Shown: positions 62,219 to 64,000 of the stretch, piece after piece
How the letters are laid out: the number at the start of each line of letters is the position of its first letter
Position numbering within the stretch: position 1 is the first letter of the stretch
Origin: Escherichia coli
Lineage (GTDB): Bacteria > Pseudomonadota > Gammaproteobacteria > Enterobacterales > Enterobacteriaceae
Length of the DNA stretch: 64,000 bases
Assembly (NCBI RefSeq): GCF_046105845.1
Contig: NZ_CP151004.1
Reading direction: 5' to 3' (one strand)
Notes under the pieces: generated by a model
What the model was told of the DNA's origin: nothing
Database searches by the model: none
What the model saw: only the letters and a program-made list of their open reading frames with translations
Program-made: the position numbers and the translations under genes

Positions 62219-62777
62219 AATAAAGTTCCTCTAATGGTAGAGTAATATGGTGTATACGGAAACATAAAAATGTTTAATTGTTGTGAAAGTAATTGCAAAC
62301 AGATGTCCTACTTTTATCCAATATTTATATGGAAAAGGATAATGCTTAAATCTGTTTTTTTAATTATCGATGTGGTCTGGAGAGGCAACTGTCAAAAATC
62401 GCTCATACGAAACTAATGATTAGCAGAATAAGATCTATGAAAGAATATATTGCTATATGAAGTTTATTTTTATGGCGTGAAAAGTAACAGATATCATAAT
62501 GATGCGAAAACTCTTCAGCTAATGTAATAAAGTTATATTATTAGATACAAAATCATTACAAAGTATCATTGAATCGATGATAACTATAGATAGTGCTAAT
62601 TATTAACATTTGCTTGTTGACTGCGAGTATCGACTTTGGGAATGGAGGCGGTGTCGGGTTTTATGTCGCAGGTAATGACGACCCAGGATGAATGAGAACG
62701 CATAAAAATCTGTTATTTACATCATAAGATCATCATGTTTATTGCGTGGTTTATAAGTATTGTTATTGCATACTCAA

Positions 62778-62853
62778 GGCCCTTTAGCTCAGTGGTTAGA
62801 GCAGGCGACTCATAATCGCTTGGTCGCTGGTTCAAGTCCAGCAAGGGCCACCA
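62778..62853 (+). tRNA. ileY: tRNA-Ile (anticodon CAU, lysidine-type tRNA-Ile2)
   Basis: 76-nt cloverleaf ggccctttagctcag...gcaagggccacca; anticodon loop cuCAUaa; body matches ileX/ileY-type rather than tRNA-Met. Confidence 0.85.
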
Positions 62854-63604
62854 TATCAGCATTCACGTATCAGGAAGAGTTAAGGGTACAAGGGGTACTC
62901 GATGGCGGTCTATATTTCACGACTAACGCCATTTCAAGGAAGAAGTGTGGTGGGTGGTTTCGAATGAGGGCTGGTGTTTTGGTACGTGGCACGCCACTGC
63001 AATGTATTTATCCATCAGTACTCATTCAAAAGTACCTGGAAAAAATGCCCGCTATGCCAAGCGGGCAAATTGCTTACATGTGGAATTAAGTAATTAACGA
63101 TAAAGCCAGAGTATTATCATTTATTATACCCCTTCATTTAATCAGGTTAATTACTCAAATCACTGAACTATTCTCTTTTCGCTCACTTTTGCTGAGTGAG
63201 TACCACGACCAATGTATGTAGAACAATGCCTTAGAGTAAGGATGAAATGTCTCTGCCACGCCTTAAACATCTACTACTGACTAGAACCGCCGTCGAATGC
63301 AGAAGAGTCTTGTGAGCGTTACAGGAGTCTGGCTTTGGTCATTAATCAACGCTATTGAGATATACATTTCTAACACTCAAAAAACGATTTTCACTAATAA
63401 ATTATAACGGGTGGTTTTTATCATACAGCGAAATAACCTTTTGTTTATTAAATTTAACATTCCTGTGCTAAATTAATTAAAAGTGCCATGTATAGCATAT
63501 GAAGCTGCTAATGCCAGCAATTGTCTCAAATGAGCGATTTTTTATAGTGACAAACAATAATAACATTAAAAATAGCCATGTAGACATTAACTGAGGAATA
63601 GACA

Positions 63605-64000
63605 ATGTTAGTTAGTAAAAGCAACGAAATTAACACTAGCACATTTATAAATAGTGGAAGTTGTAATGAAAGAAAATCTTCTAAATCCATGGAGTTACTA
63701 GCTTATAGTATTATAAAATTAATTTGTAAGGAAGCTGCCACAGGGACGTATAACGGTGCTCTTGAAATTTTACAAAAAATGATGTCTGAATGTAAATATC
63801 ATGAAAGCAATGCTTTTGTCATTATGGGAGCCGGAGAACAATTAAAACGTATTAAATATGATGTTAATGAAAATAAATTAAAAGTATACAACGTACACTT
63901 TGATAATAATCAAGAGTTAGTTGCTGATGGTGAGCCTGACGTAGTATTTTTAAAAAAAACGGTGTGGGAAGACCTTCTCGTTAAACTAAAGCTGGAGAAC
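63605..64000 (+). CDS. Hypothetical protein, 3'-truncated at window end, in AT-rich DNA
   Basis: ATG at 63605 preceded by SD gaggaa; open for 132 codons to the window edge; not in the ORF track because incomplete. Confidence 0.5.
   Translation, partial: MLVSKSNEINTSTFINSGSCNERKSSKSMELLAYSIIKLICKEAATGTYNGALEILQKMMSECKYHESNAFVIMGAGEQLKRIKYDVNENKLKVYNVHFDNNQELVADGEPDVVFLKKTVWEDLLVKLKLEN

Follow-up and report, generated by a model that had tools for sequence, protein, structure and literature searches.

The 64,000-nucleotide (nt) stretch of Escherichia coli DNA analyzed in this study (contig NZ_CP151004.1 of assembly GCF_046105845.1; hereafter the window) ends in a low-GC (guanine + cytosine) interval in which the core gene glaH is followed by an alpha-amylase-family gene of the ygaQ type, the transfer RNA (tRNA) gene ileY and the first 132 codons of ypjCB. 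A megablast search with positions 59500–64000 returned matches in 5425 of 5426 complete E. coli genomes (best identity 99.1%), and the RefSeq annotation under the match reads glaH, alpha-amylase-family protein, tRNA-Ile and YpjCB. The window sequence ends at position 64000, and the downstream content was inferred from relatives, the nearest complete genome being 99.1–99.3% identical; in two 99%-identical genomes ypjCB [472 amino acids (aa)] is followed by a 42–55 aa resolvase fragment, which we take to be pinH of K-12, a 39 aa open reading frame (ORF), the ypjA/EhaD autotransporter gene, ssrA and smpB; strains elppa4 and 1190 show this order of ypjCB, resolvase fragment, ypjA and ssrA. It is very probable that the window ends inside the known E. 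coli interval glaH–ygaQ–ileY–ypjCB–(pinH fragment–ypjA)–ssrA, in which ileY is a spare tRNA-Ile2 gene with an empty bacterial attachment site (attB), the surrounding segment is old and ypjCB is confined to Escherichia.

The lowest-GC DNA of the window is its last ∼4.2 kb. The drop begins at ∼59830, takes in the 750-codon gene at 59966–62218 and gives a GC content of 0.368 for 59830–64000 versus 0.524 for the rest of the window. Positions 62219–64000 (0.351) fall in the lowest 0.5% of all stretches of 1782 nt (mean 0.516, standard deviation 0.046). The long AT-rich stretches that a first-pass annotation of the sequence had described around the tRNA were borne out, with GC contents of 0.311 for 62219–62777 and 0.378 for 62854–63604; the ORF from 63605 stands at 0.313. 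By part, the GC content of the segment between glaH and ssrA is 0.38 in ygaQ, 0.31 and 0.38 in the spacers, 0.34 in ypjCB and 0.50 in ypjA.

ARAGORN located one tRNA, at 62778–62853 on the plus strand, with the anticodon CAT and the label Met; the Rfam tRNA model scores 73.8 bits over the same positions, and the tRNA fold has a z score of −4.2. Because the gene is identical at 76 of 76 nt to ileY of K-12 strain RP437, and because its orthologue bears the RefSeq annotation tRNA-Ile in all complete genomes listed, it was assigned to tRNA-Ile2(CAU) and not to tRNA-Met, in agreement with the first-pass annotation. tRNA-Ile2 reads the rare AUA codon after conversion of C34 to lysidine by TilS, an enzyme that uses the acceptor-stem pairs C4–G69 and C5–G68, and both pairs are present in the acceptor stem of the window gene (GGCCCT...AGGGCC), which carries T6/A67. 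Mis-annotation of this tRNA as tRNA-Met has already been remarked upon in print (PMC3032704). In K-12, ileY and ileX differ only at positions 6 and 67, and ileY can be deleted while ileX cannot (PMC11480407). We propose that ileY is a second, dispensable copy of tRNA-Ile2, in which C34 would be converted by TilS to decode AUA, and that it would be transcribed from its own sigma-70 promoter ∼200 nt upstream (TAGATA-16-TATCAT in the promoter scan); the same hexamers were given for ileY, with an H-NS flag, in an RpoD study using genomic systematic evolution of ligands by exponential enrichment (PMC3946193).

The gene is polymorphic within the species: the window and K-12 have U6–A67 and G28, and several strains have U6·G67 and A28 (loci L001, at 18278–18353, L002 and L007 were compared), the A28 allele giving an A·C mismatch in the anticodon stem. 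In strain EC11, ileY has changes in the T-arm that preserve its stem pairing, in line with a derivation of this version from the attachment site (attP) of the integrated island. A 13-nt exact inverted repeat flanks the tRNA; by our own estimate, chance matches of this kind would number ∼1 in 13 kb, or ∼0.02–0.05 if the two spacers alone are considered, and the repeat may be due to chance. A 109 aa ORF at 62760–63089, sometimes annotated as a hypothetical protein, overlaps the tRNA and was treated as spurious.

The history of the DNA around ileY was read from strains that lack it. In relatives, the accessory segment measures ∼10.7 kb, comprises ygaQ, ileY, ypjCB, the resolvase fragment and ypjA, and has its edges 95 nt upstream of glaH and 151 nt 3' of ssrA. 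In strain 21AR0707, which carries an empty allele, glaH is followed by 683 bp and then by ssrA; a 333-bp filler of unrelated sequence separates the loss of homology with the window at 59829 from its return 151 nt 3' of ssrA, and the tRNA is missing as well. This empty glaH–ssrA junction was found in 1100 of the 5426 complete genomes (20%), and the full stretch is present in ∼2,880–3,100 of them (about 57%); the remaining genomes show deletions or insertions mediated by insertion sequences (see also PMC3032704). In UTI89 and similar strains the tRNA match is through ileX alone. No direct repeats were found at the edges of the 10.7-kb segment or of its E. coli-specific ypjCB–ypjA part. Furthermore, the 333-bp B2 filler of the empty allele matches neither the segment nor the corresponding E. 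albertii locus (L013), in which matches are confined to the glaH-side and ssrA-side flanks.

Between ssrA and glaH, E. albertii carries ykgR, ykgM, ykgO, a tRNA(CAU) gene and a ygaQ homologue (60% amino-acid identity). At the nucleotide level, blastn matched L013 to the window in ygaQ (68%), in part of the ygaQ–ileY spacer (62386–62474, 84%) and in 62704–63175. Since ygaQ, ileY and ∼320 nt downstream of it are syntenic in E. albertii, the genomes with a direct glaH–ssrA junction have most likely lost the segment. On this comparison, ygaQ and ileY appear to be older than the split between E. coli and E. albertii, a deletion is the simplest reading of the empty allele, and the part with ypjCB, the resolvase fragment and ypjA (from ∼63176) would be specific to E. 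coli and without recognizable ends. The segment would accordingly be old and not a recent insertion, with the tRNA as part of its cargo. The proposal of the first-pass annotation, an AT-rich islet around the tRNA with possible further accessory cargo, holds in part: the tRNA does lie in non-core, low-GC DNA, but the edges of this DNA are not at the tRNA and the ORF is not the cargo of a tRNA-integrated island. In E. albertii, the ykgR-, ykgM- and ykgO-like genes (L013:7828–8793; zinc-independent L31/L36 paralogues) occupy the place that ypjCB and ypjA have in E. coli.

The same annotation had also pointed to tRNA genes as common integration sites. For the species this is correct. In EC11, a CbtA/YeeU–Ag43 island begins 3 nt past the tRNA, with the break at window position 62856, and a P2-like prophage in strain MRSN346595 uses the same breakpoint. 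Strain BA92 carries an island in which a P4-type integrase (domains Arm-DNA-bind_3, Phage_int_M and Phage_integrase) abuts the right-hand attachment site (attR); this attR begins with the equivalent of window position 62807, and beyond it the downstream DNA of the window resumes. When site occupancy was compared across strains, as had been suggested, 66 of 87 evaluable loci with conserved DNA 3' of ileY were empty like the window and 16 had the 3' half of the tRNA alone (attR only); this sample consists mostly of public metagenome or virus-catalogue contigs. In addition, a survey lists the 'tRNA-Met ypjC–ygaQ' site as an insertion site of elements with the ter operon (PMC8193136). ileY is thus a genuine attB in the species for P4-type tyrosine integrases and for a P2-like phage.

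In the window itself this attB is empty. The tRNA gene is uninterrupted and joins directly to its native flank on either side, an arrangement also found in ∼2,880 complete genomes. A tyrosine integrase was absent from 59830–64000 and, in the two 99%-identical genomes, from the 8 kb that follow. With up to three mismatches allowed, locus L001 (34.5 kb, from the closest complete genome) matches the tRNA 3' end at the tRNA itself and nowhere else, and a repeat-family search returned no direct repeat of it; in the closest genomes, the 8 kb downstream thus contain neither the integrase nor the repeat that the first-pass annotation had suggested looking for. Because the islands of occupied strains sit between the tRNA and the DNA from 62857 onwards, that DNA is native flank and not island. 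A recent island at this tRNA was ruled out on the integrase, the att repeat and the contiguous native flanks; the same observations, together with segment edges that lie elsewhere and homology with E. albertii that continues for ∼320 nt past the tRNA, show that the ORF from 63605 is not the cargo of an island at this tRNA.

The coordinates of the features of the interval are collected in Table 1.

Table 1. Features of the low-GC end of the window (positions in the 64,000-nt window).
Feature	Position	Strand	Basis or remark
Low-GC accessory segment, window part	59830–64000		Between core genes glaH and ssrA
ygaQ-type alpha-amylase-family gene, intact, 750 aa	59966–62218	−	ORF list, RefSeq, weak Pfam match
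ygaQ–ileY spacer patch, 84% identity in E. albertii	62386–62474		Holds motif arm 62388–62418
Sigma-70 promoter-like TAGATA-16-TATCAT	62542–62569	+	Promoter scan; same as published ileY promoter
ileY, tRNA-Ile2, anticodon CAU	62778–62853	+	ARAGORN, Rfam, identity to K-12 ileY
attB core (3' half of tRNA), unoccupied here	62807–62856	+	Breakpoints of islands/prophages in other strains
Conserved unannotated non-coding block	62945–63110	+	Long hairpin 62952–63037, GC hairpin 63046–63067, invariant tail
Intrinsic-terminator-like hairpin, then TTTTTT on minus strand	63046–63067	−	Terminator scan
AT-rich RNA-polymerase-binding zone	63114–63150		Promoter scan; PMC3946193
Putative start of E. coli-specific part (ypjCB, resolvase fragment, ypjA)	63176–64000		E. 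albertii homology stops at ∼63175; diversity rises here
Promoter-like TTGTCT-16-TATAGT upstream of ypjCB	63518–63548	+	Coincides with second arm of 31-nt motif
ypjCB, first 132 codons (DUF5507), cut by window end	63605–64000	+	Pfam, NCBIfam

The setting of ileY bears on its possible role. AUA codons number 21 in ygaQ (33% of its Ile codons), seven in ypjCB and 16 in ypjA, versus 0–1 in glaH, gabD, gabT and lhgO. In K-12, Hha has been reported to bind near ileY and ypjC (PMC2408971), and ygaQ has been used as a model of H-NS-silenced foreign DNA (PMC7229825). Among the hallmarks of H-NS-silenced acquired DNA, AT-richness and a patchy distribution are observed directly here, and H-NS/Hha occupancy is known from the K-12 literature alone. 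We infer that ileY may act as a weakly expressed, auxiliary AUA decoder that mainly serves AT-rich genes, with its 3' half doubling as attB. Two further promoter-like sites overlap in the AT-rich zone downstream, namely TTAACC-16-TATAAT on the minus strand at 63150–63123 and TTATCA-17-TTTAAT on the plus strand at 63114–63142, the latter being the published 'ypjC promoter' (PMC3946193). A 31-nt motif (core ATGAGCGATTTTT) occurs at 62388–62418 upstream of ygaQ and, inverted, at 63518–63548 upstream of ypjCB, with each copy facing its own gene; the pair may represent a shared operator or may be due to chance.

The spacer between ileY and ypjCB contains a block (62945–63110) that is more conserved than its surroundings. 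This block of ∼165 nt occurs once per genome, with an identity of at least 96.7% across 3094 genomes, and is ∼90% identical to E. albertii (L013:9047–9300), where ygaQ reaches 68%; between the two species its 74-nt core differs by one substitution, the 76-nt tRNA by five and ygaQ by 32%. The plus strand of the block folds with −52 kcal/mol (z score −4.97) and contains ten G·U pairs. All natural substitutions in the main stem keep the pairing, and three of those within E. coli do so on the plus strand alone; in the GC hairpin, the common K-12 allele C63050T keeps its pair on the plus strand alone. No compensatory double changes were seen. In the minus-strand direction, the GC hairpin has the form of a classic terminator, with a promoter-like site matching at 10 of 12 positions ahead of it. 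A 41-codon ORF (62964–63089) that overlaps the block is intact everywhere. A small protein encoded by it was nevertheless rejected, and an RNA structure favored, because the differences between E. coli and E. albertii are mostly non-synonymous and fall at stem positions, where G·U pairs change to A·U. No Rfam family matches the block, and the searchable literature, queried also with strings of the block sequence, contained nothing on it.

From these comparisons, the block is probably a functional RNA or a terminator element. The narrower proposal of a functional RNA, which could be the structured 3' trailer of the ileY transcript or else an ∼80-nt antisense small RNA (sRNA) ending at the terminator at 63046–63067, would explain the conservation of the spacer and is one that we take seriously without favoring it. 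It agrees with a single-copy sequence whose core is better conserved than the tRNA, with the fold and the preserved pairs of the plus strand, with the promoter-like site and terminator of the minus strand, with the mostly non-synonymous change of the overlapping ORF and with the RNA polymerase binding reported in this spacer in K-12 (PMC3946193). However, the lack of compensatory double changes and of an Rfam family speaks against it, the assignment to a strand is ambiguous, and the block may be nothing more than a terminator or processing region of ileY or a protein-binding DNA site. A more specific version, in which an unannotated functional RNA encoded ∼90–260 nt 3' of ileY, as processed trailer or antisense sRNA, has stayed nearly unchanged since before the split of E. 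coli and E. albertii, with divergence of at least 30% in the genes on its flanks, and may regulate or sponge RNAs in the manner of RNAs derived from tRNA spacers, is possible but doubtful. Whichever reading applies, a strongly conserved and apparently structured block beside ileY is covered by no annotation and no Rfam family.

The ORF at the end of the window is ypjCB. Its ATG at 63605 is preceded, 7 nt upstream, by the Shine–Dalgarno sequence GAGGA (63593–63597), and no stop codon interrupts the 132 codons up to the end of the window, so that its description as a well-initiated, AT-rich ORF was accurate. It had also been described as having no recognizable motif, which proved to be wrong: Pfam DUF5507 matches with an E value of 2.2e-65 (residues 1–132 on profile positions 1–132 of 160), and the NCBIfam model Ecoli_YpjCB (NF050179) gives 270.7 bits for the 132 codons, against a cut-off of 650 set for the full length. 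A full-length relative from strain elppa4 (98% identical, 472 aa) reaches 939 bits with the same model, and the full-length protein consists of DUF5507 and DUF5508. In K-12, ypjC and ypjB are pseudogenes.

The distribution of YpjCB is narrow. A search of 5.8e9 proteins gave 431 relatives, all from Escherichia or Shigella, and an exhaustive HMMER search of 1.84e9 cluster representatives gave fragments of the YpjCB family and one weak PA14-repeat protein (E value 6e-4), which was considered as a distant homologue and judged to be a chance match. When one genome from each of 100,044 bacterial and archaeal species was scanned, the single match was a stray 2.8-kb E. coli-like contig in a metagenome-assembled genome. 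This contig (L009, DEQI01000374.1) is filed under a Planococcaceae genome (UBA3370), its YpjCB has 72% identity, and it is almost certainly a binning contamination. The phage records of GenBank contained no match. In the plasmid collection PLSDB, the three near-full-length matches (85–96% of the query) are E. coli chromosomes of 4.8–4.9 Mb filed as plasmids (NZ_CP134663.1, NZ_OL790696.1 and NZ_CP141089.1), and a fourth, in a 245-kb record, covers aa 218–300 alone. A mobile origin of ypjCB was rejected on the basis of these phage and plasmid results. The match of YpjCB to PHROG 30093, a 'phage' family without an assigned function, is probably an artefact of prophage boundaries, and PADLOC found nothing at the locus.

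Within the species, YpjCB varies strongly. Its alleles differ by 3–27% at the protein level, and the linker between the two domains is hypervariable and rich in indels; nucleotide diversity is 0.07–0.34 in ypjCB, reaching 0.2–0.34 in the linker, and 0.02–0.05 in ygaQ and the spacers. Within E. coli, the linker (L001:19528–19860) falls into two or three versions that are very divergent and rich in indels, and its diversity is too high for neutral drift at the dS (synonymous divergence) of the flanks. The ratio of nonsynonymous to synonymous divergence (dN/dS) of the 132 window codons is 0.44–1.09, at the same dS (0.15–0.21) as ygaQ. Pseudogene states with frameshifts and stops recur in K-12, BA92, strain 1190 and NRZ96052a, and in many strains a frame of 450–490 codons is open despite a GC content of 34%. 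On these figures, the constraint on ypjCB appears to be weak or diversifying, and the gene is apparently not simply dead everywhere.

YpjCB is a protein of ∼450–490 aa in which a predicted alpha/beta N-domain is joined by the hypervariable linker to a C-domain containing seven period-5 repeats, with an acidic tail at the end; our tentative view is that it binds other proteins, is non-essential and is in decay in many lineages. The alternative that it is a functional, fast-evolving secreted protein related to the type III effectors PipB2, PipB and EspX, with the high dN/dS reflecting diversifying selection and not decay, is improbable. A resemblance of the ORF to the N-terminal region of the Salmonella effector PipB2 had been noticed at the outset. 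In favor of this alternative, Ser, Asn and Thr abound in the first 25 residues and no signal peptide is present, the AlphaFold model of the 132 window residues is predicted to be helix–helix–sheet–helix, the seven repeats (aa 352–386) are invariant in all alleles, with one in 5000 shuffles scoring as high, and invariant blocks stand beside variable ones in an ORF that is kept open in many strains. However, the structure predictions are of low confidence [full-length protein, predicted local distance difference test (pLDDT) 43.5; N-domain, 54.4], the repeat test was post hoc, and frameshifts and stops recur. Furthermore, hhalign comparisons of PipB2 with YpjCB gave probabilities of 2% and 1.5%, Pfam Pentapeptide_3 matched with an E value of 2.5, the PipB2 N-domain family PF21684 was not matched, and neither Foldseek with the low-confidence models nor a profile search of the PDB returned a match.

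Very improbable is the suggestion of an island integrated at ileY whose edge would be the tRNA, with the ORF as its first cargo gene and the integrase and further cargo beyond the window. It would draw on the low GC content of the stretch, on the fact that elements of at least three kinds use ileY as attB in other strains and on the serine-recombinase fragment 340 nt 3' of ypjCB in relatives. Against it, the islands of occupied strains are inserted with the tRNA on one side and the same ypjCB-proximal DNA on the other, the closest genomes have neither an integrase nor a tRNA repeat, the homology with E. albertii runs on past the tRNA, and the recombinase remnant, at 42–55 aa, is a resolvase and not a tyrosine integrase of tRNA sites.

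The ygaQ-type gene matches the Pfam families Alpha-amylase and Alpha-amylase_C weakly or marginally. It is a pseudogene in K-12, O157 and others, and nuclease activity has been reported for the K-12 product (PMC4725251). With a dN/dS of 0.09–0.26, the gene, intact here, is under purifying selection. The protein is a near-orphan: beyond the E. albertii homologue (60% amino-acid identity), the next relatives are a gut-metagenome protein at 35% and cyanobacterial amylases at ∼23%. The neighbors of the gut-metagenome gene, the sole distant relative (35% identity; contig L014:2902–3189), match InvH, a leucine-rich-repeat protein, an EAL-domain protein and a large invasin/intimin-like protein, which suggests the context of an enterobacterial virulence island.

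Elsewhere in the window, positions 28072–28799 hold the serV–argV/Y/Z/Q tRNA cluster, with one Ser and four identical Arg-ACG genes; a tRNA-Arg(tcg) called by ARAGORN at 28188–28259 on the opposite strand, over the first Arg gene, is probably spurious. The sRNA MicA lies at 31710–31781 on the minus strand (Rfam, 83.9 bits). The sole other low-GC patch of the window (49250–50500, GC 0.38–0.40) is probably the alaE–stpA spacer region, by synteny with annotated relatives.

Several points weigh against the account of an old, partly decaying segment with a spare tRNA given above. The polarity from an ancestral to a lost state rests on one E. albertii genome and two similar metagenome contigs, and the content of this strain past 64000 is taken from a 99.1–99.3%-identical genome. 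The dispensability of ileY and the binding of H-NS and Hha are results from the K-12 literature, and the link between the AUA-rich neighbors and the tRNA is a correlation. The absence of YpjCB outside Escherichia was established partly with exact-heptapeptide seeds, which very divergent orthologues could escape. Moreover, a frame of 450–490 codons that is open in many strains in DNA of 34% GC argues for continuing selection on the protein in some lineages, and 'decaying' may be too strong a word. Taken as it was first filed, the locus has little significance, being an annotated E. coli locus rediscovered with its site empty in this strain; it is ordinary, with ileY, decaying neighbors and a documented integration site. 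Its value lies in being a clean example of a tRNA gene that is the cargo of an old accessory segment and yet also a secondary docking site.

Compared with known systems, YpjCB has no sequence, profile, Pfam pentapeptide or PF21684 similarity to the pentapeptide-repeat type III effectors PipB2, PipB and EspX. Regulatory RNAs derived from tRNA 3' trailers, of which 3'ETS-leuZ is an example, resemble what is seen beside ileY, where a structured RNA candidate lies 100–260 nt 3' of a monocistronic tRNA on the same strand; unlike RNAs of the 3'ETS-leuZ type, the block is known here from its sequence alone, and the antisense sRNA reading is equally open. With islands and prophages integrated at tRNA genes by P4-type integrases (EC11 and BA92 at ileY, CP4-57 at ssrA), the window shares the low-GC tRNA setting, and the 3' half of its tRNA is the attB of the ileY elements; unlike them, it has no integrase and no direct repeat, and the edges of the segment lie away from the tRNA. 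Genes for rare-codon tRNAs in AT-rich DNA silenced by H-NS and Hha (argU, ileX, ileY and proL; PMC2408971) provide a further parallel, with an AUA-decoding tRNA lying by AUA-rich, AT-rich genes here too, whereas ileY is missing from about a fifth of E. coli genomes and the binding was reported in K-12. The nearest counterpart is the ileY locus of K-12 itself (ygaQ'–ileY–ypjC/ypjB'–pinH'–ypjA, beside CP4-57 and ssrA), which has the same gene order and orientation as the window and shares with it an identical tRNA, the hexamers of the ileY promoter and the conserved downstream block. K-12 differs in having internal stops in ygaQ and ypjCB, whereas in the window ygaQ is intact, as are the 132 visible codons of ypjCB, which belong to a different allele from that of K-12 (dN 0.146); the 'pseudogene pair' of K-12 corresponds in many strains to an intact, fast-evolving, Escherichia-only protein.

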